A stretch of DNA of 64,000 nt from an uncultured Bacteroidaceae bacterium. Its GTDB lineage: Bacteria > Bacillota > Clostridia > Christensenellales > CAG-917. A program made the position numbers and the translations under genes. The notes beneath the pieces are model-generated. The model was not told the DNA's origin. It saw only the letters and a program-made list of their open reading frames with translations, and searched no databases. The number at the start of each line of letters is the position of its first letter. Within the stretch, counting starts at the first letter, position 1. This document shows, in pieces, positions 27-53,322 of this stretch. Where the stretch lies: the NCBI GenBank assembly GCA_964604875.1, contig CAZSAC010000001.1, positions 30,730 to 94,729 on the forward strand. Reading direction: 5' to 3'.

Positions 27-103
27 GCCTTGGTAGCTCAGTTGGTAGTAGCAGTGGACTGAAAATCCACGTGTCGGTGGTTCAAGTCCGCCCCAAGGCA
101 CCA
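27..103 (+). tRNA. tRNA-Phe (anticodon GAA), CCA encoded
   Basis: Acceptor gccttgg/ccaaggc; anticodon stem gtgga/tccac with loop cuGAAaa; T-loop ggttcaagtcc; ends ACCA. Confidence 0.9.
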
Positions 104-214
104 AAGTGCATTACCCGTATTTCGCCACAGCTCTCACCGTTGTTTGTTGTGAGCAAGAGGTGAAATACTTTTATATAAGGGGAATTTGCCACAACTAGTT
201 TCCCCTATCAATAT

Positions 215-289
215 GCTGGTGTGGCTCAATGGCAGAGCAGCTGATTTGTAATCAGCAGGTTGTTGGTTCGACTCCGACCACCAGCTCCA
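215..289 (+). tRNA. tRNA-Thr (anticodon UGU), CCA encoded
   Basis: Acceptor gctggtg/caccagc; anticodon loop ttTGTaa; T-loop ggttcgactcc. Confidence 0.9.
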
Positions 290-294
290 ATTAT

Positions 295-379
295 GGGAAG
301 ATTCCCGAGTGGCCAAAGGGAGCGGACTGTAAATCCGTTAGCTAAGCTTTCGGTGGTTCGAATCCACCTCTTCCCACCA
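295..379 (+). tRNA. tRNA-Tyr (anticodon GUA), long variable arm, CCA encoded
   Basis: Acceptor gggaaga/tcttccc; anticodon loop ctGTAaa; long extra arm; T-loop ggttcgaatcc. Confidence 0.9.
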
Positions 380-2281: not shown

Positions 2282-2306
2282 CAATATCAAATTCATCAAA
2301 AGAAAA

Positions 2307-3290
2307 CTAATTTCCTTGACGAATGGCAACTTCGATTTCAGCCAAAATTTCGGGGTTATTATTGAGATATTCTATGGTTTTATCTCTGCCTTGCCCGATT
2401 TTCTCATCCTTATACGAAATCCAGCTACCGCTCTTTGTGACGACGTTTTTCTCAATCGCCATATCCAAAATACAACCTACTTTTGAAATACCCTTTCCAA
2501 AGATAATATCAAATTCTGCAACCTTAAATGGCGGCGCAACCTTATTCTTTACAATTCTTGCCTTAGTATGATTTCCTATAACCTCTTGCCCGTCTTTTAG
2601 GGCGTCGGTACGACGAATATCAATTCTAACGCTGGAATAAAACTTTAAAGCCTTTCCGCCCGTTGTGGTTTCGGGATTGCCAAACATTACGCCGATTTTG
2701 TCACGCAGCTGATTTATAAACACGATACTGCACTTTGTTTTTCCGCAGATAGCCGTGAGTTTTCTTAAAGCTTGACTCATCAAACGAGCCTGCAAGCCCA
2801 TATGACTATCGCCCATTTCGCCGTCGATTTCGGCTTGCGGAGTCAGCGCGGCAACGCTGTCAACAACAATAATATCGATAGAATTGCTTCTAACCAACGT
2901 ATCAACGATATCCAAAGCCTGCTCTCCATTATCTGGCTGAGAGATATACATATCGTTGATTTGCACGCCTAATGCTTGAGCATAATAAGGGTCAAGCGCG
3001 TGTTCTGCGTCAATGAACGCCGCCGTCCCGCCTTTTTTTTGAGTTTCTGCGATTATGTGAAGCGCAACCGTGGTTTTACCCGAGGATTCCGGCCCGTATA
3101 TTTCAATAATTCTACCACGAGGTATACCTCCGATTCCCAACGCCATATCTAAAGTTAAACAGCCTGTGGGGATTGCGTCAACCTTTTGGATTTCGGATTC
3201 TCCAAACTTCATAATTGCGCCCTTGCCGAACTGCTTTTCAATTTTTTGTAGAGCGTGTTCGAGGGAGTTTACATCAATTTTATCTGCCAT
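2307..3290 (-). CDS. recA: Recombinase RecA
   Basis: 327 aa; Walker [10 protein letters not shown]; full-length RecA-type sequence; SD aaggag upstream. Confidence 0.97.
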
Positions 3291-3309
3291 CTTTTTCTCC
3301 TTTGCTTAC

Positions 3310-3783
3310 TTAATTATATTTTTTTAGAAACAAAAAAAGTTGTTCTAAAATAAATTCTGTGGCTTTTTTGCGTATTTCTAAACGATTTCCCGCAAAAATT
3401 TGTTTAAAAGTCAGTTTGCAATTTTTTGTTGCCAAACCAAAATATACAAGCCCTACAGGCTTATCCAAACTTCCGCCGTCGGGGCCGGCAATACCCGTTG
3501 TCGAGATTGCTATATCGGCGTTATTTAATAGCCCTTGCGCCATTTCTAGCGCCGTTTCAGAAGACACTGCGCTAAAACTGTTTAATGTCTTTTCCGATAC
3601 GTGTAAACGCTTCATTTTAGACTCGTTGCTATAGCTTACAATCCCCTCAAATAGATTTTGAGAAATGCCCGCTATATCAACCAAACTAGACGTTACCATA
3701 CCGCCCGTAAGACTTTCGGCAACGGCTAGGGTTAAGCCTTTTTCCCTCAATAGTTTTGCTATCTCTTCAGCGTATTTTATCAT
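3310..3783 (-). CDS. pncC: CinA C-terminal domain protein / nicotinamide-nucleotide amidohydrolase (PncC-like)
   Basis: 157 aa; AESLTGG motif and TGIAGPDGG; sits immediately upstream of recA, as cinA does in Firmicutes. Confidence 0.8.
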   Translation of the reverse strand: MIKYAEEIAKLLREKGLTLAVAESLTGGMVTSSLVDIAGISQNLFEGIVSYSNESKMKRLHVSEKTLNSFSAVSSETALEMAQGLLNNADIAISTTGIAGPDGGSLDKPVGLVYFGLATKNCKLTFKQIFAGNRLEIRKKATEFILEQLFLFLKKYN

Positions 3784-4403
3784 TTATTTTCTGAAGTGGA
3801 CGGTTCAGTCTCAACAACCGTTTGAGCAGCAATAGGCGTATCCGCTAATACCGCGCGGTTTTTGAAGATGTAATTTATCCCCGAATAGATTGAGAATAAC
3901 GCTCCAAGATAGAACGTAATTTTGCCTAACCAAGTGAAAAAAGCAAAGTCGCCAAATACAATAGCATCCAAGAACAATGCGCTCAAGCCAATGTCAAGAA
4001 AAATTGTTTTTATTTTGCCCCAAACGTCGGCGGCGATAACAACCTTCTTTTTTGCGGCGATAGACCTAAATGCGCTGACGATAAATTCCCTGCTCATAAT
4101 CAAACCGCACACGATTGCGCCCCAAGGGTTTGTCAAAGTGCCATCTCCGACATATACAAAAAGCATAACGACAACAATAACTTTATCCGCTATCGGGTCT
4201 AAAAACTTGCCTAAATCCGTAACAAGATTTCTACTGCGGGCGATGTGTCCGTCAATAAAATCAGTACAACAGCAAAGCACGAACAAAACGCAAGCTATAA
4301 TATCATTTGCGATAGGCGCAGACGGAATTTCCACATAGTATGCAACCAGAACAAGCGGAATTAAAAAGATTCTTGCAAGAGTGATTTTGTTTGGTAAATT
4401 CAT
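3780..4403 (-). CDS. pgsA: CDP-diacylglycerol--glycerol-3-phosphate 3-phosphatidyltransferase
   Basis: 207 aa multi-TM; CDP-alcohol phosphatidyltransferase motif DFIDGHIAR..G..LDPIADK. Confidence 0.85.
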   Translation of the reverse strand: MNLPNKITLARIFLIPLVLVAYYVEIPSAPIANDIIACVLFVLCCCTDFIDGHIARSRNLVTDLGKFLDPIADKVIVVVMLFVYVGDGTLTNPWGAIVCGLIMSREFIVSAFRSIAAKKKVVIAADVWGKIKTIFLDIGLSALFLDAIVFGDFAFFTWLGKITFYLGALFSIYSGINYIFKNRAVLADTPIAAQTVVETEPSTSENK

Positions 4404-5722: not shown

Positions 5723-8700
5723 TAAAACCCTCTAAATCATCTGTAACGCCGTAAATTTGGTTGAATTGCTCCAACGATAACAGCACGTCGCGCCTTTTAT
5801 TTCCACCTTTATTGGTTGAAACATAACGTTTCTGCTCCATTTCTTCTATAAGCTTTGCCGCCGTCGGATAACCTATGGAAAACTTCATTTGTAAACGGGA
5901 TATAGAAGCTTGTTGTTCCATAACGCAAAGACGTAAAGCCTCAACAAAAAGCTGGTCGCTTTTACCCACTCTCGGCGAATCGATTGACTCGTCATCTTCT
6001 TCATTTTCGTTTTGAGCATATATACTGTTTTGAATTTCCGTATCATAGAAGCACTCATTGTTGGCTTTGATATAATCTACAACCGCCTTAACCTCGTCTC
6101 TCTCGACAAGCGTACATTGCAAACGTAACGCCTCCTTGCCTTGAGGAGCGTAAAGCATATCGCCCTTGCCCAAAAGCTTTTCTGCGCCTCCACCGCCTAA
6201 AATCGTCATAGAGTCGGCAGTCGACGTAACGGCAAACGCAATCCTTGACGGAAGGTTGGATTTTATTGTGCCCGTAACAATATCCACAGACGGACGTTGT
6301 GTGGCAACCACCAAATGAATTCCAGCCGCGCGTGACAAACGCGTAATTTTGCCGATTCTGTCTTCAATTTCTTTTTTCTTAACCAAAATAAAGTCCGCAA
6401 GCTCGTCAATGACGCAAACAATGCGCGGAATTTTATTCAATCCGCTTCCTTTTTTGGAAGCAACGGCATTATATTCGGCGATGTTTCTAACCTCGTTTTT
6501 CTTGAACATTTGGAAACGTTCTTTCATTTCTGTGATAAGCCAATCCAAAGCATTTATCGCAATTTCGGGGTCATCGATAACCTCGGGGACAAGCAAATGA
6601 GGAAGTCCGCTGTATAAATTCAGTTCTACCTGCTTGGGGTCAACTAAAATCAATTTCAAATCATTGGGACCGCAACGATATAAGAGGCTGACTATAAGCG
6701 AGTTGATACAAACGGATTTACCGCTACCTGTAGCGCCCGCAATCAGCATATGAGGCATACTTTCTAAGTCACATACGTTGTTTGTGTTGGCAATGTCCTT
6801 GCCTAAAGCAAACGTCAAAATAGATTTAGCCCGATTAAACTCCTCAGACATAACCAAGTTTTTCAAGCTTACCGTAGCGCGTTTTCTGTTTGGAACTTCA
6901 ATACCGAAAGCGTCTCTACCCGGTATCGGAGCTTCAAATCTTATTTTATCCGCGCATAGTTTCATCGCTAAATCGTGGTCGAGTTTTAAAACGTTATTTA
7001 CTGATACGCCGTCCGGCATTTTTAGCTCAAACCTTGAAAAAGTCGGCCCTTGCGTAACCCCGATAACCTTAGCGTCAACCTTAAACTGTGACAAGGTACG
7101 TTCCAAAATATCAATTCTGTCGGCATAATCCTCAAGCTCAACCGAATCGTCGCGCCCAAAAAGCAACTCAATCGGCGGCGCAAGATAAGGTTGCGAAAGC
7201 CCTCTTTCTTTTATGGCTTGGTCAATAGATATTTGCTCGGGTTTCGTCTTTTTCGGCGTCTCGGGTGAAAGCTTAACGGGTTCCGCCTTTTTGCCGATAG
7301 GAAAATCGTTGTTATAAGAGGAAGGTTTTTCTAAGGCAACGTCGTCCTTAGCTTTATTTCGTTCCACAGGGGTATCAATTTCTTTTTCGACCTTTTCAAC
7401 TTCGCTTTCAGACGGCATAATTACGCTTGTATCCACAGTTTCCGAGATAGACGGCGTAACAATATTTTGCGGTTTTTCAAATCGGGAAAAGTCACCCAAA
7501 GAGGGGCTGTCGTCAACTGTCGGATTTTGTGTTTTATTTTCAACAGGTTGAGCGGGGGCGTCACTAGCTTTTGGTTTTTTGGATTTTCCAAATAGGCTGA
7601 AAATACTGCCGACTTCTTCAACACCGATACCGCCGTTTTTTGGCGTTTCACTTTGAACAGGCTCGGCAGAAGGAGTAGGTTTTTCTTCATAAGCTGGCGC
7701 CTGAGACGGTTTTTCCACAGTCGGCTTTGAAATATGCAATTTCGATTCAACAACAGGACGGGGCGGCATTGGCGGTATAGGCTTAATTTCCGATACTGTC
7801 GGCTCTTGTCGTGGTGTTTTATCAACTGAAGGTTTATCTTTCTTTTCCCCAAACAAAATATCCTTGATAAATGCGGGCATATTTTCGTCAGGCTCAACAT
7901 TTTTTCGGGTATCTTCAATAATCGGTTGCGGTTTTTCAACCTCGGGCGCAGGCGCAGGCTCAGGCTCAACAGGTGGTGTCGCTTTCGGGTTGACTATGCG
8001 TTTTGATGCGGCTCCGTAAACGTCGCTGGGTTTTACGTCAGAATTAATGATATATCCGATGCGCTCTTGCATATCTTTGATACGCCCTTCTTCTGTGTTA
8101 TCAATTCCAAACGCTTCTTTAATAGATTTGGGCTTTGAATCCGCCTTTTCGTTTTGCATCTCGACGTTGAAATTGAACGGCAAAGACGATTTTGGCACTT
8201 TTTTATGCGCAGGTATAACGTCGTCATTTTCGGAGGTGCCGAAAAGTACGGGTTTATCACCGTCGTTGTTTTGAGCGTCGTTTTTTGCTTTTCTGTTTCC
8301 AAAAAGCTTTTCACGAGAACGGCGACGGCGTTCCTCCTCGGATTCAGGCATCGCCTCAATTTCAGAATCATTGACTTTATCCGCGCTGTCTTTATTGGGA
8401 AACATTGCGTCAAAGCCTTGCTTTTGTTGTTGTTTAATTTGTTTTTTCCCTGCAAGCTTAAACTCGGGACCTTCGCCATCGTTATCGATTGTGCCAATAA
8501 ACAATCTTGACCCAACGTCTGTAGGATAAGCCCTTTCATCGGGATTTTGTTTAGAAAAGTCAGTCAAAGACGGTTTGTCGTCTTTAGAACGTTTAATTTT
8601 GGTTTGTTTGGCGCGATAAGGGCTTTTCCTTTTAAACAATGGATAAAACGACGCCAACGCAGCAGCGGAAAACAGCACCAACAATACAATCAAAAAGAAC

Positions 8701-22681: not shown

Positions 22682-22708
22682 ATATTCCTCTTTTTTAAAA
22701 AAATTAAT

Positions 22709-23285
22709 GGTGGTAACATTTTGAGTAAACCTTGCGCCTTTAGGTCTAGTTGACTTTCTCTCCACAAAAACTCTTCGTCGCCGATAGAGAAGTTTCCTAT
22801 TATATTGCAGACTACGGAGTTGCCGTCCGCAGGACTAGATTGCCACTTAGAGCACACTATAATCCCCAAAATATTTCCAATGGAACAGCCTAGAAGATTT
22901 CCTTTACAGTCCAAGAGCACACTTAGCTTCTTTTGCAAGCTGAGTTTCATCGGGCAATCGGCAAAAGCACATTGGCCAACATACAATGCCGTGTTCCCAA
23001 ATTCACACCGATCACTCAAAGCAGGCTACTCTGCACACAGCTTTTTGCCGCATTACAGGTTTTCACTAACCAGTAGAAGATTTGACGTCTACCGAATTAG
23101 GCCTCCACGATAATTGGGTCGCAGGTCGCATGCCATTGCGACTCGCCCAAAAATCTTAACTCCCAGCAACAGCCCTTGTTTGGGCAACAAAGGCCACCAC
23201 CAGAAACTTCATCGATATGCCCTTTAACGGTATTTTAACCCCGTCTTGGGTGTGGCTGGACTGACTAGGATACTGCACCACCATT
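22709..23285 (-). ncRNA. ole: Candidate OLE (ornate, large, extremophilic) RNA, ~575 nt
   Basis: ORF-poor region, GC-richer than neighbouring intergenic DNA, between ispA and the 4-TM gene; own TTGTAA-17-TATAAT promoter; 5' GGUGGU can pair with 3' ACCACC; the operon context xseAB-ispA-RNA-oapA-dxs-tlyA-nadK-argR-recN matches the published OLE locus. Ends are approximate and no covariance search was run. Confidence 0.65.
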
Positions 23286-23292
23286 TTTTTGT

Positions 23293-23321
23293 ATTATAAC
23301 ACAATCAAATATAAATTACAA
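23293..23321 (-). promoter_or_regulatory. Sigma-A type promoter directly upstream of the OLE-like RNA
   Basis: Minus strand TTGTAA-17 nt-TATAAT; predicted start near 23285, just before GGUGGUGCAG. Confidence 0.55.
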
Positions 23322-44881: not shown

Positions 44882-45529
44882 TTATCGCTGAGATAGATAA
44901 ACTCCAAGCTGCTCGGCGTCTGAAAATACCGGCCTATTTAGCTTAGACAATGTTTCAAGGCTGTTGTGCCCTCTGGCAATAAATACGCAGTCACAACCAA
45001 TCTCATCGGCAACCTCGGCGTCGTGGGCGGTATCGCCAACCATAACCGCCGTCGTTACATCAAACGGATGACCTAAAAGCCAATCCTGCGCAATTTCAAT
45101 TTTTCCCTTTGCATAAATGTTATCTAATCCGATTACGTCATCAAAATAATCTGATAAGCCGTAGTGGCTCAAAAGCTCAATTAAGCCGTCTTTTTTATAA
45201 GCCGACAAAATAATTTGCCTAATTTTTTGAGAATGAAGTTTTTTTATTAAACCGACGACGTCACTAAATACCGGCGCATTTTCGGCTTTAATATAATATT
45301 CCTTCATATACTCGTCCGCTAACGTTTCATAAGGCTCAATAGAATAATCAAATCCCGCTTTTTTATAATAATCTACAATAGGAAAACAAAATTTATCAAA
45401 ATAATCCGCCGAATTTTCAAATCGTTTCATATTTCGTCTGGTAAAAAGCTCGTTAATACTGTCGATTCCAATTTGGAGGTCATCTAATATTGTACCGTTC
45501 CAATCCCAAAATATTGTTTTATAGCCCAA
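44882..45529 (-). CDS. HAD-superfamily hydrolase (phosphatase-like)
   Basis: 215 aa; motif I IFWDWNGT (Asn at the D+2 position), motif IV VGDTAHD. Confidence 0.7.
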   Translation of the reverse strand: MGYKTIFWDWNGTILDDLQIGIDSINELFTRRNMKRFENSADYFDKFCFPIVDYYKKAGFDYSIEPYETLADEYMKEYYIKAENAPVFSDVVGLIKKLHSQKIRQIILSAYKKDGLIELLSHYGLSDYFDDVIGLDNIYAKGKIEIAQDWLLGHPFDVTTAVMVGDTAHDAEVADEIGCDCVFIARGHNSLETLSKLNRPVFSDAEQLGVYLSQR

Positions 45530-45552
45530 AAAACACCTCGCTATTTGTTTTA

Positions 45553-45585
45553 GAAAAAATATGGCTTATATCGCCATATTTTTTA
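45553..45585 (-). terminator. Hairpin terminator after the AOR gene
   Basis: aaaaaatatggc-loop-gccatatttttt, A/T runs on both sides. Confidence 0.6.
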
Positions 45586-45621
45586 AACTAATATTTATAT
45601 TTTATGTAGTTATTAAAAAAA

Positions 45622-47586
45622 TTATACCCTGCCCGTTTCTCGCGCTAAACGGCGTTTGTCTTTTTCAACCTCTTTTTGGAAGGATTTATCATCAAGCTTA
45701 AGCTTTTTCATTAGGCTGGGTTTAGGTATGCCGTTTTCATCCCATTGACGTGACTTATAAAATTTCTTTCTAAGTTTATCCATTGGGACTTTCGTCTTTT
45801 TATTTGAAGGGTCCTCGCATTCGTCGGTCAATTTTTTGGGAAGCTTATCCTGACTGCCTTGCAAACCTAAGCGGATATTCAACATTCTTTCCAAGTTCCA
45901 CCCACGTTTGCCAACCTTTAGAAAATCACCAATTTTATAATTCATACCCGTACAATGATTTATTGCAACGGGATAGGTTATCATACCTTCCAAATTCACC
46001 GCAAGCATACCCGGGTGATGGTTGATTAAATCAACAATACCACCGATATAAGGCGCTACTGCATTGACAATCCTTGTCGGTAAAAAGTTGGGTTTGGCAA
46101 TCAAAAAGCCCGGCAAAACCTGATATGACGTGAACAAGCAAGTGCCAGCGGCGGAAATTGCTTCCATAAAGTCTTGGAAAAATACCGTAAACGCAGCCTT
46201 TCCAAAAGGCGTAAGCTGATTTATGCTTAACCCCAAACCTTCTAATATAACCAAATAACCTGCGTTTAAGTGACAACCGCCACGGTTTGACGTTGCGTAT
46301 CCCAAGCCCATACCCACGGCGTGTCTTGGCTCGTATGCGGAAAGCTCCATACCTTTTACGTTTATGGCAAAGTCTGTTCCGCCGTATTTTTCTGCAAGCC
46401 AACGACTGCCCTCTGCAAGCTCGTCGCCGACACCACGACGCAACGCAATATCTTCAATTAGCTGTGAAATATTATCGATTTTCCCAAATTCTAAGCCTAA
46501 ATCTGCCATTCCTTTTTCTTTAAGCTCCATAGCAAAAGCCACAGTACCCGAAAAGGAAATTGTATCCATACCGTATTCGTCAAGCTCGTAATTCCACTTA
46601 AAAATGCTTTCTAAATCGCTGTTTAAAATATTCGGCCCCAATAAGCCCAAAATTTCCAACTCGGGACCTTTAACCGCCTTATTATCTACGTCAACAACTC
46701 TCGTACATTGAATCGGGCAAGATAGACAGCCCTTATTTTTTATCAAAAATTCTTCCGCAAGTCTTTCACCGCTGACTTTTTCAAAATCATCATAGGTGCC
46801 CTTGCTGAAGTTTTTGGTTGCCAAGATATGCTTTGCCTGCATCTGTGTAACTAAGCCCGCAGTCCCCAAACGAGGAAGCTGACTGCCTGTTAAAGGATGT
46901 TTTTTTAGCCTTGCAACCCAAGCTTTTGCAGTTTTTTGTAATTTTTCTTTATCGAAAGCCGTGTTGCCGATAGAGCCTTCAGCAGTGATAGCCTTAACGT
47001 TTTTACTGCCTAAAACCCCGCCGAGACCCGCGCGTCCGGCAGTCCTCTCATCGCTGAATAAGCCTGCGTATTTAACCCTATTTTCGCCGGCGGGTCCAAT
47101 AACAAGTTTACCGCATTTTCCGCCGATTTTTTCTTGAACTTCGCTAGTTTTAAGACCCCACAGTTCTGTCGCGTCTTCAAAAGTGATTTTGTCTCCGACA
47201 ATTTTAATAAGGGTTTTACCTTCTGCCTTGCCCGTTATAATAATGCCGTCGAAACCACACCGCTTCATCTGCATACCAAAAGGTCCGCCACAGTTTGAGG
47301 AAGCCACAAGCCCGGTTTGCGGAGATATCCCCGACACGTTAAAACGCGCGCTGGAAGGCAAGCCGTTGTTCGTAAAAGGACCGGTTGTGATAACCAAAAG
47401 ATTTTCCTCGCCATACGGGTCAATCTTATCTTTGATATTGTTATATAAAATTTTGGCAGCCATAACCTTGCCACCCAAAAAGAGACGTCTTTCGGTATCC
47501 GACCAAGGATAATCCGAGACTGTCTTTGTGGTTAAATCGATTTTTATTACTCTGCCGACATAGCCGCCGTATTTAGTATTACTCAT
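45622..47586 (-). CDS. aor: Aldehyde:ferredoxin oxidoreductase family (tungstopterin) enzyme
   Basis: 654 aa; AFOR N-domain, 4Fe-4S cysteines (CLSCPIQC), SNRGGCH motif. Confidence 0.87.
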   Translation of the reverse strand: MSNTKYGGYVGRVIKIDLTTKTVSDYPWSDTERRLFLGGKVMAAKILYNNIKDKIDPYGEENLLVITTGPFTNNGLPSSARFNVSGISPQTGLVASSNCGGPFGMQMKRCGFDGIIITGKAEGKTLIKIVGDKITFEDATELWGLKTSEVQEKIGGKCGKLVIGPAGENRVKYAGLFSDERTAGRAGLGGVLGSKNVKAITAEGSIGNTAFDKEKLQKTAKAWVARLKKHPLTGSQLPRLGTAGLVTQMQAKHILATKNFSKGTYDDFEKVSGERLAEEFLIKNKGCLSCPIQCTRVVDVDNKAVKGPELEILGLLGPNILNSDLESIFKWNYELDEYGMDTISFSGTVAFAMELKEKGMADLGLEFGKIDNISQLIEDIALRRGVGDELAEGSRWLAEKYGGTDFAINVKGMELSAYEPRHAVGMGLGYATSNRGGCHLNAGYLVILEGLGLSINQLTPFGKAAFTVFFQDFMEAISAAGTCLFTSYQVLPGFLIAKPNFLPTRIVNAVAPYIGGIVDLINHHPGMLAVNLEGMITYPVAINHCTGMNYKIGDFLKVGKRGWNLERMLNIRLGLQGSQDKLPKKLTDECEDPSNKKTKVPMDKLRKKFYKSRQWDENGIPKPSLMKKLKLDDKSFQKEVEKDKRRLARETGRV

Positions 47587-47662
47587 ATCGCCCCTATAAA
47601 TTTTTTATTATAAATATTGTAACAAAAATATTTGCATTACGCAAACAAAATTATGTCTAAGT

Positions 47663-48520
47663 TTAAAATGCGCAGTTATTTGGGTCAGAACCAAGCCTGC
47701 CAACGCCCACCGTTTCTGAAATATTATTTAAAATATCCATCTCAAACGCCTCAAGGTTAAAGTCAAATACGTCGATGTTTTCTTCAATGCGCGACGGCGT
47801 TACCGACTTTGGAATAGGCACAACGCCTTTTTGCAAGCACCATCTAAGCATAATCTGCGCGGGAGTTTTTTTGTATTTTCGGCTTAAAGTTTGTATTTCG
47901 TCTAAGTCAAAGGATTTTCCCTTGCATATAGGCGCCCACGCCTCAACAACCATATCTTTGGACTTTGCATAGTTTAAAACGTTTTCCCTATATAAACCAA
48001 TATGGTATTCAAATTGGTCAACCATAGGCATAATCGTGCAGTTATTTTCAAGAAAATCCAAATGGTTTTCCAAAAAATTGCTGACGCCTATAGCCCTGAC
48101 TCGCCCTTCGTTATATAAGCGTTCAAAGGCGCGCCAAGTATCATATATTTTTTCTTGCCAAATTTCTTTAAAATCAAAGGCAATCGGCCAGTGGATTAGG
48201 TATAAATCAAGATACTCCAAGCCCAATTTCGACATTGATGCGTCAAACGCTCTTAAGGTTGTGTCATAACCTTGGTCAGGGTTCCACAATTTGGTGGTTA
48301 TAAACAACTCTTTTCTGTCTAAATCACACTTATTTATTGCATTTCCAACGCTTTCCTCGTTATTATAACACCTCGCCGTGTCAATTAAGCGATAACCCGC
48401 TGAAATTGCTTTTAGTACGCCGTCCTCACAGATTTCACCTGCCGGAGTTTTAAAAGTGCCATACCCGATAATTGGCATTTGAACGCCGTTTTTTAGCGTA
48501 ATTTTATCAAAAATTTGCAT
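47663..48520 (-). CDS. Aldo/keto reductase
   Basis: 285 aa; GYRLIDTA..Y, LWN, LDLYLIHWP, IPKS..P.R motifs. Confidence 0.9.
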   Translation of the reverse strand: MQIFDKITLKNGVQMPIIGYGTFKTPAGEICEDGVLKAISAGYRLIDTARCYNNEESVGNAINKCDLDRKELFITTKLWNPDQGYDTTLRAFDASMSKLGLEYLDLYLIHWPIAFDFKEIWQEKIYDTWRAFERLYNEGRVRAIGVSNFLENHLDFLENNCTIMPMVDQFEYHIGLYRENVLNYAKSKDMVVEAWAPICKGKSFDLDEIQTLSRKYKKTPAQIMLRWCLQKGVVPIPKSVTPSRIEENIDVFDFNLEAFEMDILNNISETVGVGRLGSDPNNCAF

Positions 48521-48596: not shown

Positions 48597-49826
48597 TTAT
48601 TTAATTCTATCGCCGTATTTTTCCAAAACATAGTCTACGTCCTTGTCGCCCCTGCCTGAAAGATTGACCAAAATTGAGCCTGTGCCCATTTCTTTGGCAA
48701 GCTTCATCGCATATGCGACAGCGTGCGAGCTTTCCAACGCGGGGATAATACCCTCTAACCTAGACAGTTTAAAAAATGCGTCAACAGCCTCTTCATCGGT
48801 TGCCGTTCTATATTCCACACGCCCGACATCGCGTAAAAAAGCGTGTTCGGGACCCGACGACGGATAATCCAATCCGCTTGCGATTGAATACACGGGGGCA
48901 GCCTCGCCCTTATTATCCTTAAGCATTATACTGTTAAATCCGTGCATAATTCCTTCAGTACCGTATGTCAGGCTTGCGGCGTGGTCACCAATTTTTTCGC
49001 CTCTGCCCAGAGGCTCAATACCACAAAGCTTTACGGGGTCGTTTAAAAAAGCTTCAAACATACCGATAGAATTACTGCCACCGCCTACACAAGCGCAAAC
49101 AACGTCGGGAAGCTCTCCCGTCATTTGCAAAAACTGCTCACGAGCTTCAATGCCAACAACCATTTGGAAATCTCTTACCATAAGCGGAAACGGATGAGGT
49201 CCAAGGGCTGAACCGATGCAGTAAATACTATCCTTGTATTCCTTCAAATATGCGTCGAAAGCGGCGTCAACGGCTTCTTTCAACGTTTTTAAACCGTGCG
49301 TCACGGGAATAACTCTTGCGCCCAAAATTTTCATTCTGGCAACGTTTGGAGCTTGCTTTGATATATCGACTTCACCCATATAGATGTCACATTCCAACCC
49401 AAAATACGCAGCAGCCGTCGCCAACGCAACGCCGTGTTGCCCCGCGCCGGTTTCGGCGATAAGTTTTTTCTTTCCCATATAGTTTGCAAGCAAGCCTTCG
49501 CCCATACAATGGTTTAGCTTGTGAGCGCCCGTGTGGTTTAAATCTTCACGTTTAATATATATTTGACAACCGCCAATGCTTCTAGACAGTCTTTCACAAT
49601 GATAAACGGGCGTGGGACGGCCCTGAAACTCTTTTCTGATGCGTCTGAGTTCGCTTATAAATTTTGCCGATTTGCAAATAGTTTGATATGCTTGCGAAAT
49701 TTCTCGAAAAGCAGGAACAAGCTGTTCTGGTAAATATGCGCCACCGTATTGTCCGAAATACCCGTTTTTATCGGGATAGTTTTTTAAATATGTTTGAAAA
49801 TTTACTTCATTATTGTTTGTATTCAT
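48597..49826 (-). CDS. trpB: Tryptophan synthase beta chain (orphan; no trpA or other trp genes nearby)
   Basis: 409 aa; [16 protein letters not shown]-lysine block [20 protein letters not shown]. Confidence 0.87.
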
Positions 49827-49871: not shown

Positions 49872-49897
49872 AAAAAAACAGCAATATGCTATTGCCA
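49872..49897 (-). terminator. Weak hairpin plus U7 in the trpB leader, a possible attenuator
   Basis: Minus strand GGCAAUA-GCA-UAUUGCUG followed by UUUUUUU, ~45 nt upstream of the trpB ATG. Confidence 0.35.
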
Positions 49898-49948
49898 TCG
49901 AAAATCCAAAAAAATATAAGGAAAATACAACCGCTCTATTGCGGAAAC

Positions 49949-49998
49949 CTCAACTAAACTAAACATAACTCACCTATACTAAACTAATTTAAACCCTA
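49949..49998 (-). promoter_or_regulatory. Run of (U/G)AG triplets with 5-nt periodicity, a TRAP-binding-site-like element in the trpB leader
   Basis: Minus strand UAG-9nt-UAGuuUAGuaUAGguGAGuuAUGuuUAGuuUAGuuGAG; eight triplets in perfect 5-nt register (7 canonical). Confidence 0.4.
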
Positions 49999-50013: not shown

Positions 50014-50043
50014 ATATTAGCATATTATGTTTTGCGATGTCAA
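50014..50043 (-). promoter_or_regulatory. Candidate sigma-A promoter for trpB
   Basis: Minus strand TTGACA-18 nt-TAATAT; would give a ~180-nt leader. Confidence 0.45.
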
Positions 50044-50092: not shown

Positions 50093-50506
50093 TTACAAGT
50101 ATTGTCTTAATTCTTTAATATTGCAGTCATAAAGTTCAATCAAATCACCCACCAGTGGCGGAGTTTCGATACCATCATTATTGGCTTCGTGCGTTTGAGA
50201 AATAATTTCATTTATACCAAGATTGTTTCCTTCAATAAGCATTTGGGCAATATTTTTATTTGATTTATCCATACAAGCCTTCATTTTGGTTGCCGAACGC
50301 ACCATCATATTTTGAAAGAATTCTCCCTTAACCTCATCGCTTAAGTCGCCTTCACAAACCGCTCTATCTTTTATTTCTGCAAGTTTTTCTCTTTGATTGA
50401 CAACGATATTTCTAAACTCATCGTCTTTAACACATGTTTTTATGCTGTCAATCGCCTCAATACCCATATTGGCATTTTTTGCTACTTCCATAATTAAATC
50501 ACTCAT
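50093..50506 (-). CDS. Hypothetical helical protein
   Basis: Start set at the ATG preceded by ggagga (MSDLIMEV...); 137 aa, predicted all-helical, no motif recognised. Confidence 0.5.
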   Translation of the reverse strand: MSDLIMEVAKNANMGIEAIDSIKTCVKDDEFRNIVVNQREKLAEIKDRAVCEGDLSDEVKGEFFQNMMVRSATKMKACMDKSNKNIAQMLIEGNNLGINEIISQTHEANNDGIETPPLVGDLIELYDCNIKELRQYL

Positions 50507-50551
50507 ACCAAATCCTCCAGACTTAGTATGAGTCATATTTTTTTATAAATA

Positions 50552-52034: not shown

Positions 52035-52121
52035 TGGTGCCGAAAACCGGACTCGAACCGGTACGGCTGTTACACCGAGGGATTTTAAGTCCCTTGCGTC
52101 TGCCTATTCCGCCACTTCGGC
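52035..52121 (-). tRNA. tRNA-Leu (anticodon UAA), long variable arm, CCA encoded
   Basis: Acceptor GCCGAAG/UUUCGGC; anticodon loop cuUAAaa; T-loop gguucgagucc. Confidence 0.9.
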
Positions 52122-52125
52122 AAAT

Positions 52126-52199
52126 TGGAGGCACCACCCAGACTTGAACTGGGGATAAAGGCTTTGCAGGCCTCTGCCTTACCACTTGGCTATGGTGCC
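52126..52199 (-). tRNA. tRNA-Cys (anticodon GCA), CCA encoded
   Basis: Acceptor GGCACCA/UGGUGCC; anticodon loop cuGCAaa; T-loop aguucaagucu. Confidence 0.9.
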
Positions 52200-52205
52200 A
52201 AAACT

Positions 52206-52280
52206 TGGAGCGGGAGACGGGATTCGGACCCGCGACTTCCACCTTGGCAAGGTGGCATTCTACCACTGAATCACTCCCGC
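52206..52280 (-). tRNA. tRNA-Gly (anticodon GCC), CCA encoded
   Basis: Acceptor GCGGGAG/CUCCCGC; anticodon loop uuGCCaa. Confidence 0.9.
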
Positions 52281-52333
52281 ATATTATATGCTTTGGCAAC
52301 AAAAACGCTACATTTATTAAGTTTTAAATTTCC

Positions 52334-52504
52334 GCGCGCCTACCCTCGCTTTGCGCTCGGACTCAACTTGCTCACTGCTAGGCTTGCTGTCTGTGTTTGT
52401 CTTTTGCGCGCCTACCCTCGCTTTGCGCTCGGACTCAACTTGCTCACTGCTAGGCTTGGCTTATAACTCTGTCTTTCACGCGCCTACCCTCGCTTTGCGC
52501 TCGG
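52334..52504. repeat. GC-rich tandem direct repeat, 72-bp period, about 2.4 copies, inside the tRNA operon spacer
   Basis: gcgcgcctaccctcgctttgcgctcggactcaacttgctcactgctaggcttg is identical at 52334 and 52406; the first 26 nt recur at 52479; each unit is bounded by the self-complementary GCGCGC. Confidence 0.9.
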
Positions 52505-52525
52505 GGCGGCTTTCCTGCGCTCGTT

Positions 52526-52637
52526 TATGCCCTCAAGTCGTTCCGCCTTTTGAACATAAATTTTTGCATTACTGCAAGCAGTATGCAAGCAATTTATGTT
52601 TTCCCTCAAAGTCAACTTTGCTGACTTTGAGGGCATA
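52526..52637 (-). other. Three related segments allowing mutually exclusive helices (12-bp local hairpin versus ~100-nt long-range pairing)
   Basis: ttatgccctcaa(g)tc at 52526, ccctcaaagtca at 52604, inverted copy tgactttgagggcataa at 52621. Confidence 0.6.
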
Positions 52638-52644
52638 ACTCGCT

Positions 52645-52720
52645 TGGTGCGCCTTCAGGGATTCGAACCCGGGACCCACTGATTAAGAGTCAGTTGCTCT
52701 ACCAACTGAGCTAAAGGCGC
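52645..52720 (-). tRNA. tRNA-Lys (anticodon CUU), CCA encoded
   Basis: Acceptor GCGCCUU/AAGGCGC; anticodon loop cuCUUaa. Confidence 0.9.
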
Positions 52721-52727
52721 ATAAATT

Positions 52728-52769
52728 TTCAAGGTGCGGAAAAAAAATTTTTTCTGTCGCACCTTGAAA
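52728..52769 (-). other. Long near-perfect hairpin between two tRNA genes
   Basis: ttcaaggtgcg...cgcaccttgaa outer stem, with an inner A-run/T-run extension. Confidence 0.7.
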
Positions 52770-52772
52770 TGT

Positions 52773-52856
52773 TGGTGCGACCGAAAGGACTTGAACCTTC
52801 ACATCATGGATACTAGATCCTAAGTCTAGCGCGTCTGCCAATTCCGCCACGGTCGC
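52773..52856 (-). tRNA. tRNA-Leu (anticodon UAG), long variable arm, CCA encoded
   Basis: Acceptor GCGACCG/CGGUCGC; anticodon loop cuUAGga. Confidence 0.9.
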
Positions 52857-52872
52857 AGATTTAAATTAAGTT

Positions 52873-52948
52873 TGGTGACCCATCCGCGACTCGAACGCGG
52901 GACACCTTGATTAAAAGTCAAGTGCTCTACCGACTGAGCTAATGGGTC
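52873..52948 (-). tRNA. tRNA-Lys (anticodon UUU), CCA encoded
   Basis: Acceptor GACCCAU/AUGGGUC; anticodon loop cuUUUaa. Confidence 0.9.
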
Positions 52949-52952
52949 ATAA

Positions 52953-53027
52953 TGGCAGGGGTGGCAAGATTTGAACTTACGAATGCTAGAGTCAAAGTCT
53001 AGTGCCTTACCGCTTGGCGACACCCCT
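52953..53027 (-). tRNA. tRNA-Gln (anticodon UUG), CCA encoded
   Basis: Acceptor AGGGGUG/CACCCCU; anticodon loop cuUUGac. Confidence 0.88.
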
Positions 53028-53061
53028 AAAAACTGTCCTACCAACGCACGCAATATGGATG

Positions 53062-53139
53062 TGGGGTGAGTAATGGGATTCGAACCCATGGCCTCCAGGG
53101 CCACAACCTGGCGCTCTAACCAGCTGAGCTATACCCACC
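53062..53139 (-). tRNA. tRNA-His (anticodon GUG) with encoded G-1, CCA encoded
   Basis: Extra 5' G opposite the discriminator C; anticodon loop uuGUGgc. Confidence 0.88.
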
Positions 53140-53142
53140 ATA

Positions 53143-53219
53143 TGGCGAGCCAGAAGGGATTCGAACCCCTGACCTACGGCTTAGAAGGCCGTTGCTCTAT
53201 CCTACTGAGCTACTGGCCC
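53143..53219 (-). tRNA. tRNA-Arg (anticodon UCU), CCA encoded
   Basis: Acceptor GGGCCAG/CUGGCUC; anticodon loop cuUCUaa. Confidence 0.9.
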
Positions 53220-53248
53220 TCATTGCGCATTGTAGGATTTGGCGTTAA

Positions 53249-53322
53249 TGGAGCGGGTGATGGGAATCGGACCCACGCGGTCAGCTTGGAAGGCTGATAT
53301 TCTACCATTGAACTACACCCGC
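53249..53322 (-). tRNA. tRNA-Gly (anticodon UCC), CCA encoded
   Basis: Acceptor GCGGGUG/CACCCGC; anticodon loop cuUCCaa. Confidence 0.9.

Follow-up and report, generated by a model that had tools for sequence, protein, structure and literature searches.

A candidate TRAP-binding site over the start of a tryptophan-codon leader gene upstream of a stand-alone trpB in an uncultured Clostridia lineage

A 64,000-nucleotide stretch of contig CAZSAC010000001.1 (assembly GCA_964604875.1; hereafter the window, meaning this whole stretch) carries on its minus strand a stand-alone gene for the tryptophan synthase beta chain (trpB), whose leader contains an array of (G/U)AG triplets repeated every 5 nucleotides (nt). 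Such triplets are the candidate binding site of TRAP, the product of mtrB and a textbook case of protein-mediated attenuation, which to our knowledge has been studied almost only in Bacillaceae. The array is conserved in orthologous leaders, where it exchanges with a T-box; it lies over the start of a conserved leader open reading frame (ORF) that ends at a terminator hairpin, and mtrB, array and trpB occur together in metagenomic modules. Our preferred reading, to which we assign a probability of roughly 45%, is that TRAP binds the array over the start of the leader ORF and that a ribosome on this ORF masks the terminator. Taking together the two TRAP-dependent variants considered below, the array is probably a TRAP-type site. 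Most likely it serves as the docking site of TRAP, a tryptophan-sensing ring protein; its position over the start of a tryptophan-codon leader gene is a combination for which we know of no earlier description.

The triplet array

Read on the minus strand, the candidate TRAP site spans positions 49986–49949 of the window as UAG uu UAG ua UAG gu GAG uu AUG uu UAG uu UAG uu GAG. Its eight slots keep an exact 5-nt spacing with 2-nt spacers: UAG at 49986–84, 49981–79 and 49976–74, GAG at 49971–69, AUG at 49966–64, UAG at 49961–59 and 49956–54, and GAG at 49951–49. Seven of the eight are thus (U/G)AG, and two additional UAGs flank the array, at 49998–49996 (9 nt before the first in-register UAG) and at 49938–49936. 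The initial annotation of this DNA had described a UAG/GAG array in 5-nt register with eight slots, seven of them canonical, and one further UAG upstream, and the sequence reads exactly in this way. Some details have to be corrected, however. The in-register array begins about 21 nt past the predicted transcript start rather than about 10 nt; the upstream UAG is present and lies in the loop of a 5′ stem-loop (50010–49989); and the AUG, the one non-canonical slot, is indeed in register but is the start codon of a conserved leader ORF, which had been missed.

The array is real and far beyond chance, and it recurs in relatives. A scan for period-5 (G/U)AG arrays on both strands of the window found seven triplets only in the trpB leader, the next best array having three, and the largest array in each of 200 first-order Markov simulations of the window had 2–4. 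The strict four-triplet pattern KAGNNKAGNNKAGNNKAG matches once in the window, where 100 dinucleotide shuffles give an expectation of 0.03 matches. In the roughly 1.1 Mb of loci that were retrieved, uninterrupted runs of at least five (G/U)AG triplets are confined to trpB leaders, and every match to the strict pattern is located inside such a leader. Tandem Repeats Finder reports a period-5 tandem array of 7.2 copies at the trpB leader, as would be expected of a chance or slipped pentanucleotide microsatellite (UAGUU)n without function. We consider this origin extremely unlikely: the array lies far outside the simulated range, it is the triplets and not the whole repeat unit that are conserved across species, and independent arrays occupy the same position in distant orthologues, so that the comparative data already contradict it.

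TRAP recognizes (G/U)AG repeats with 2–3 non-conserved nucleotides between them (PMC10327191, PMC7430163), and its optimised sites are GAGUU and GAGAU repeats (PMC3064811). The window leader offers triplets with such spacers (seven canonical ones plus the two flanking UAGs) in the leader and initiation region of a tryptophan-related gene, and in orthologous leaders the triplets are kept while the spacers vary.

Conservation of the array and its exchange with the T-box

Leaders were gathered from 80 species-level trpB orthologues and from closer metagenomic relatives, and the counts refer to 81 non-redundant leaders of stand-alone trpB genes in MAGs (metagenome-assembled genomes) of gut Clostridia. 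A T-box alone is found in 50 of them, an array alone in eight, both in one and neither in 22; among the leaders possessing a leader ORF, array and T-box are nearly mutually exclusive (Fisher p = 6.7e-7). The T-boxes of loci L032 and L013 pass the Rfam cut-off and have UGG as the specifier. The window leader gave no Rfam match even at E ≤ 10, including none to the T-box family RF00230. T-box-type orthologues have the T-box followed by a strong Shine–Dalgarno (SD) sequence and a tiny ORF (typically MLLTKRWR...), and array-type leaders have a NAG array that directly precedes or covers the start of an ORF of this kind. Since the array exchanges with a sensor of tRNA-Trp before the same gene, it is expected to be a tryptophan-responsive element. 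GC content was tried as a separator of the two leader types and did not separate them.

The arrays of relatives differ in length and spacing. L090, whose TrpB is 94% identical to that of the window, reads UAG-10-UAG UAG UAG GAG uuu AUG cg UAG UAG AAG; L087/L091 (88%) have five UAGs, a 6-nt gap containing the AUG and two more UAGs; and L001–L007 (85%) have UAG UAG UAG AAG GAG UAG. Among leaders of genes with about 79% TrpB identity, L018 has six triplets, L045 five with spacers of 2, 3, 3 and 2 nt, and L023 and L054 five each. When the window is aligned with L090, L087 and L001, the AG columns are invariant and the spacers differ. The initial annotation had made its proposal depend on such conservation, and triplets and spacing are indeed kept in at least three to four lineages. 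Array-type loci form only 3–4 clades of the TrpB tree, which points to few independent array events.

T-box and (G/U)AG triplets are combined at L011 (3960–3978), where UAG aa GAG ua GAG aa GGAG covers the trpB SD, and at L019 (3795–3832; TrpB about 78% identical), where seven of eight slots are filled 5′ of the leader ORF.

The leader ORF

The in-register AUG (49966–49964) is preceded by AGGUGAG (49975–49969, minus strand), which both its sequence and SD scoring identify as the SD of a leader ORF and which lies within the array. The ORF itself (49966–49889, minus strand) encodes MFSLVEVSAIERLYFPYIFLDFRWQ in 25 codons plus a stop. It contains a single Trp codon, UGG at 49897–49895, and its stop codon (49891–49889) follows two codons later; both are situated in the 5′ arm of the terminator hairpin described below. 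The orthologous ORFs encode MRSLVKVSASVRLYFHYNFLDFRWQ in L090 and MISLVSVLCVEGTAQLCIYFTFRW in L087, each ending at a stop codon, while that of L001 includes VYFLDFRWRNGT. In all array-type leaders the array, with its last triplets, overlaps the SD and/or the start codon of the leader ORF.

A codon table was built from 42 leaders. The UGG is invariant in all of them, the Arg codon following it may be CGU, CGA, CGG or CGC, the Thr codon at −3 takes all four ACN forms, and the Lys codon at −2 is AAA or AAG. Free third positions at these flanking Arg, Thr and Lys codons are a coding signature, as expected if the leader ORF is translated. By contrast, where an Arg codon directly precedes UGG (37 cases), it is CGA 33 times. 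An out-of-frame ORF starting from the AUG inside CGAUGG was considered and discarded, as its lengths and ends were random and no consistent ORF emerged.

The end of the ORF lies near the terminator hairpin. The stop codon falls inside the hairpin in the window, L090 and L087, abuts it in L018 and L045, and precedes it by 12 nt in L023 and L054; in L001 the ORF continues through the hairpin. A short ORF with a Trp codon upstream of an intrinsic terminator is what a ribosome-mediated attenuator requires, although no 2:3 antiterminator pairing is predicted for the window leader, and it has a single UGG where such attenuators have tandem regulatory codons. It is conceivable that leader-peptide attenuation acts here alone, the UGG sensing charged tRNA-Trp, the ribosome masking or unmasking the terminator and the trpB SD, and the array being merely an unstructured, repeat-derived initiation region that binds no protein. 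The ORF is present in 42 leaders, always with the UGG and with variation of a coding type, it occurs without an array in most orthologues, and its end overlaps the terminator, all of which agrees with this idea. It leaves unexplained, however, why AG recurs at 5-nt spacing in leaders that cannot be aligned, why arrays are nearly confined to leaders lacking the T-box, and why mtrB, array and trpB are adjacent in the metagenomic contig L119 (see below), and we regard it as quite unlikely.

In sister leaders, a tiny ORF with the consensus M-L-L-T-K-R-W-R lies between the Trp T-box terminator and trpB (L013, L015, L021, L030–L034, L040–L049, L053–L058, L064–L069, L074 and L079–L086). A UGGCG...CGCCA hairpin often begins at the Trp codon of the leader ORF in T-box-type leaders.

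Leader architecture and predicted folding

All elements of the leader lie on the minus strand. The terminator of the upstream gene (50087–50066) is followed by a promoter at 50043–50014, consisting of TTGACA (50043–50038), an 18-nt spacer and TAATAT (50019–50014) with a TG before the −10 hexamer. A consensus scan recovered this promoter as it had been annotated initially, and TTGACA-type promoters occupy the equivalent place in L090, L001, L018, L045, L023 and L054. The 5′ end of the transcript would form the stem-loop UUAAACC-AACUUUAG-GGUUUAA (50010–49989; RNAfold, −6.0 kcal/mol), and a hairpin directly 5′ of the array is also predicted in L090, L001, L018, L045, L023, L054 and L087. In L018 (~3750–3783), L045 (~3697–3729) and L054 (~3690–3720) this pre-array hairpin is conserved with the loop GCAAGGGA (AUAAUGCAAGGGACAUUAU or GAUAGGCAAGGGAUUUAU), which recalls the 5′ stem-loop contacted by TRAP in the trp leader of B. 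subtilis.

The two small hairpins that had been noted downstream of the array, the second with a run of seven U, are both present. The first, CCGC-AAUAGA-GCGG (49944–49931; RNAfold), holds the UAG 49938–49936 in its loop. The second belongs to a weak, AU-rich intrinsic terminator, GAUGGCAAUA-GCA-UAUUGCUGUU (hairpin 49899–49877, −6.9 kcal/mol; U7 at 49878–49872), and a hairpin with a U-run also lies 3′ of the leader ORF in L090, L087, L001, L018, L045, L023 and L054. Between them, inside the leader ORF, the pyrimidine tract UUUUCCU (49925–49919) is predicted to act as an anti-SD pairing with the trpB SD, AGGAG (49838–49834), which is located 33 nt past the U7. The trpB ORF begins with ATG at 49826 and extends to 48597 (409 amino acids). 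Its product matches Pfam PALP and is a canonical TrpB (NCBIfam TIGR00263, 531.6 bits against a cut-off of 392), confirming the initial assignment of the regulated gene; no trpA is adjacent to it in the window.

RNAfold predicts the terminator whether the array is left free or held unpaired, so the comparison of constrained and unconstrained folds suggested at the outset gave the hairpin in both cases. No antiterminator competing with the terminator is predicted under either setting. The arrangement is therefore not the classical one of B. subtilis, and a B. subtilis-type TRAP attenuator was rejected as a description of this leader. Of the attenuation arrangement that had been put forward as possible, the weak terminator after the array stands, whereas an antiterminator is not predicted.

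The trpB SD is predicted to be mostly paired with the UUUUCCU tract (probability of being unpaired about 0.1, from the full-length minimum free energy structure and pairing probabilities), and in L001 the segment GGACUUCCGA, covering the codons D-F-R, is predicted to pair with UCGGAGGUCU at the trpB SD. A TRAP-dependent change in the accessibility of this SD was examined and set aside, since holding the array unpaired had no consistent effect in seven leaders.

These features bear on a second TRAP-dependent variant, in which the protein acts without the leader ORF, by direct termination at the weak terminator, on the lines proposed for B. halodurans, and/or by sequestration of the trpB SD, in the manner of B. 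subtilis trpE, the ORF being a separate sensor of Trp-tRNA or untranslated. All evidence for a TRAP site, namely the array statistics, the exchange with the T-box and L119, counts equally for this variant. The terminator is weak and AU-rich with no antiterminator, and TRAP can terminate at such a site (PMC3064811); folding predictions pair the trpB SD with the pyrimidine tract, and in L119 a second array lies directly over the trpB SD. Yet the gap of about 50 nt between triplets and hairpin makes a direct pull on RNA polymerase less plausible, the predicted sequestration of the SD is unchanged with the array held unpaired, and the constant overlap of the array with the SD and start of the ORF, together with the end of the ORF at the terminator, is left unexplained. 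We therefore judge this variant somewhat unlikely.

Search for TRAP

MtrB is a small family, with 127 representatives at 50% identity among 1.8 billion proteins. Tblastn detected no mtrB within 4–6 kb of any orthologous trpB. About 40 MtrB clusters, all of whose members carry PF02081, form a clade in gut MAGs labelled "Clostridia bacterium" and low in GC, where the gene always lies between dnaE and pfkA (loci L092–L104, L107–L115 and L123–L127). One member, P0377, was found in 583 collection blocks, on contigs with 31–47% G+C.

The metagenomic contig L119 provides a direct association of the elements under discussion. Its order is mtrB (2296–2520), array, terminator, second array and stand-alone trpB, the module spanning 2296–3942. 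The encoded MtrB has the canonical residues F32/K37/K56/R58 and an NCBIfam score of 135.7 against a cut-off of 117. The first array (2548–2590) reads UAG UAG GAG UAG (UGG) UAG GAG GAG GAG, with eight triplets, and is followed by a good terminator; the second, UAG GAG GAG GAG GAG, covers the SD and start codon of trpB, which is 55% identical to the trpB of the window. This gene order demonstrates that a module of TRAP, triplet array and orphan trpB does exist, and L119 is apparently a compact and self-contained one.

Links between array-bearing genomes and mtrB contigs were also sought. No assembly accession was identical between the MtrB and the TrpB matches. MtrB P0411 is found on ENA assemblies ERZ4740482 and ERZ4740454, and the contig names of the array-type loci L023 and L054 begin with ERZ474.... 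Tetranucleotide correlations between trpB and mtrB loci reach 0.91 for L045–L109, 0.85 for L001–L115 and 0.82 for L023–L102; as non-array controls reach up to 0.83, only the L045–L109 pair stands out.

The array could alternatively be read by an RNA-binding protein outside the MtrB family that recognizes NAG repeats. Such a reader would accommodate the facts that no mtrB was found in the window, that the gut MtrB clade lacks Lys37 and that the arrays are UAG-rich rather than GAG-rich. L119, however, ties a canonical MtrB to the same leader type, and we know of no other protein that reads (G/U)AG at 5-nt spacing: HutP recognizes UAG with 4-nt spacers and Hfq binds ARN triplets. A reader of another family is accordingly very unlikely.

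Proposed mechanism

We hypothesize that a tryptophan-activated MtrB homologue, encoded elsewhere in the genome, binds the array and thereby covers the leader ORF's SD and start codon. When tryptophan is ample, the protein would wrap the (U/G)AG triplets at 49986–49949, aided by the 5′ stem-loop and the flanking UAGs, and close the leader ORF to ribosomes. In the ribosome-free leader the AU-rich hairpin with its U7 (49899–49872) would form, stopping transcription before trpB, and transcripts that escape would keep the trpB SD paired with the leader pyrimidine tract. When tryptophan is scarce, the RNA would be free of protein and a ribosome could translate the leader ORF. Positioned on the stop codon, or stalled at UGG owing to low Trp-tRNA, this ribosome would occupy the 5′ arm of the terminator and block the hairpin, so that RNA polymerase would read into trpB; the anti-SD pairing would also be melted, allowing trpB to be translated. 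We infer the existence of mtrB in this genome, the binding of its product at the array and the ribosome-masking step. A more specific form of the scheme is possible, though on the whole doubtful: a hybrid attenuator in which a TRAP-type protein gates initiation of the leader peptide, the ribosome (translating or stalled at CGA-UGG) serves as both antiterminator and anti-anti-SD for an indole-salvaging trpB, and the partner is a divergent gut MtrB with Lys37 replaced and a preference for UAG-rich sites.

Several observations weigh against the proposed mechanism. On the side of the protein, tblastn found no mtrB in the 64-kb window, the part of this genome that was searched. The gut MtrB clade has Pro in place of Phe32 and a variable residue in place of Lys37, one of the three RNA-contact residues K37/K56/R58 of TRAP (PMC7430163), and the P0377 clade scores 108.3 in NCBIfam MtrB against the cut-off of 117. 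The contig names and tetranucleotide correlations linking array MAGs to mtrB contigs are circumstantial. On the side of the RNA, several relatives have only five or six triplets, part of the array is predicted by RNAfold to pair with downstream RNA, and about 50 nt separate the last triplet from a terminator for which no antiterminator is predicted. As for the leader ORF, a single Trp codon is all it contains, and in L018 and L045 this codon precedes the hairpin by 18–21 nt, too far for a ribosome stalled there to mask it. The two UAGs that follow the AUG, moreover, might owe their conservation to their role as codons (x-Ser-Leu-Val) and not as triplets.

The original proposal of a TRAP site is supported in part, by the triplet rules, by conservation, by the exchange with the T-box and by L119, but it overlooked the leader ORF, and the classical antiterminator layout is not predicted. 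If the mechanism is true, TRAP regulation reaches abundant, uncultured gut Clostridia, where its target is a lone trpB whose product probably converts indole from the environment into tryptophan. A sensor of tRNA-Trp, the T-box, and a sensor of free tryptophan, TRAP, would then have been exchanged in evolution before one conserved leader peptide, and a protein sensor and a ribosome sensor would share the same 80 nt as a compact natural circuit. The divergent MtrB clade lacking Lys37 would be flagged for the study of RNA recognition.

Genomic surroundings

The window derives from an uncultured spore-forming Clostridia lineage. It has a G+C content of 39.9%, carries spoIVA and a full-length OLE (ornate large extremophilic) RNA at 22694–23297 on the minus strand (441 bits), and is closest to MAGs from gut and rumen that bear the labels Clostridia, Clostridiales or "Christensenella sp.".

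Genes for an aldo-keto reductase, an aldehyde:ferredoxin oxidoreductase and a HAD hydrolase lie 3′ of trpB (44882–48520, minus strand). This gene string is conserved in L087–L091 and, without the oxidoreductase, in L001–L006; a functional link to the orphan trpB is possible. Immediately 3′ of trpB in L001 (85% identical) there is an S-adenosylmethionine (SAM) riboswitch (7344–7427, plus strand, 53 bits), after which come a 91-amino-acid ORF and the genes for the aldo-keto reductase and the HAD protein. The corresponding position of the window lacks such a riboswitch.

Just 5′ of the trpB promoter lies a 147-amino-acid ORF (50093–50536, minus strand) for which neither Pfam nor NCBIfam gave a match. 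A good terminator closes it, and L090 conserves the C-terminus of its product. The window also contains tRNA clusters of three genes at 27–379 (plus strand) and ten genes at 52035–53322 (minus strand); the Leu-Cys-Gly trio recurs 5′ of trpB in L001 and L087.

Comparison with known systems

The literature that could be searched yielded nothing specific on TRAP in Clostridia and no account of a leader peptide gated by a TRAP array, of an orphan trpB under TRAP control in gut Clostridia or of the leader peptide described here. Individual features can nevertheless be compared with characterized regulators. The trpEDCFBA leader of B. subtilis shares with the window (G/U)AG triplets at 2–3 nt, a 5′ stem-loop preceding them, a terminator that is weak and AU-rich, and possible sequestration of an SD (PMC3064811, PMC10327191). 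It differs in having 11 triplets, against seven canonical ones in eight slots plus two flanking UAGs, and in the window the array is UAG-rich rather than GAG-rich, no antiterminator is predicted, the start of a leader ORF is covered by the array, and the target is a stand-alone trpB of uncultured Clostridia.

At trpG, trpP and ycbK, TRAP blocks ribosome binding where its site overlaps the initiation region, and these B. subtilis sites share with the window an array over SD and start codon (PMC10327191). In the window, however, the ORF that would be blocked is a 25-codon leader and not the gene of the regulated enzyme or transporter itself, and TRAP would act on trpB only indirectly, by way of the terminator and the anti-SD. 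In the trp attenuator of B. halodurans, TRAP-dependent termination takes place at a very weak terminator that no antiterminator overlaps (Szigeti et al. 2004, summarised in PMC3064811); the terminator of the window is likewise weak, and no antiterminator is predicted for it. No leader ORF has been described for B. halodurans, and the distance from triplets to terminator is larger in the window.

The leader of B. subtilis rtpA, encoding anti-TRAP, consists of a T-box followed by a short Trp-codon peptide with tRNA-dependent stalling (PMC10327191), a layout shared by the T-box-type trpB orthologues. The window leader has the triplet array in place of the T-box, a single UGG after a fixed CGA in place of the three Trp codons of rtpA, and an ORF ending in the terminator and not at the downstream SD.

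The enteric trpL and pyrBI leaders, finally, resemble that of the window in that a short ORF containing a regulatory codon precedes an intrinsic terminator; in pyrBI, the ribosome physically keeps the hairpin from forming. Unlike these leaders, that of the window combines one Trp codon and no 2:3 antiterminator with an ORF whose initiation is apparently gated by an RNA-binding protein.

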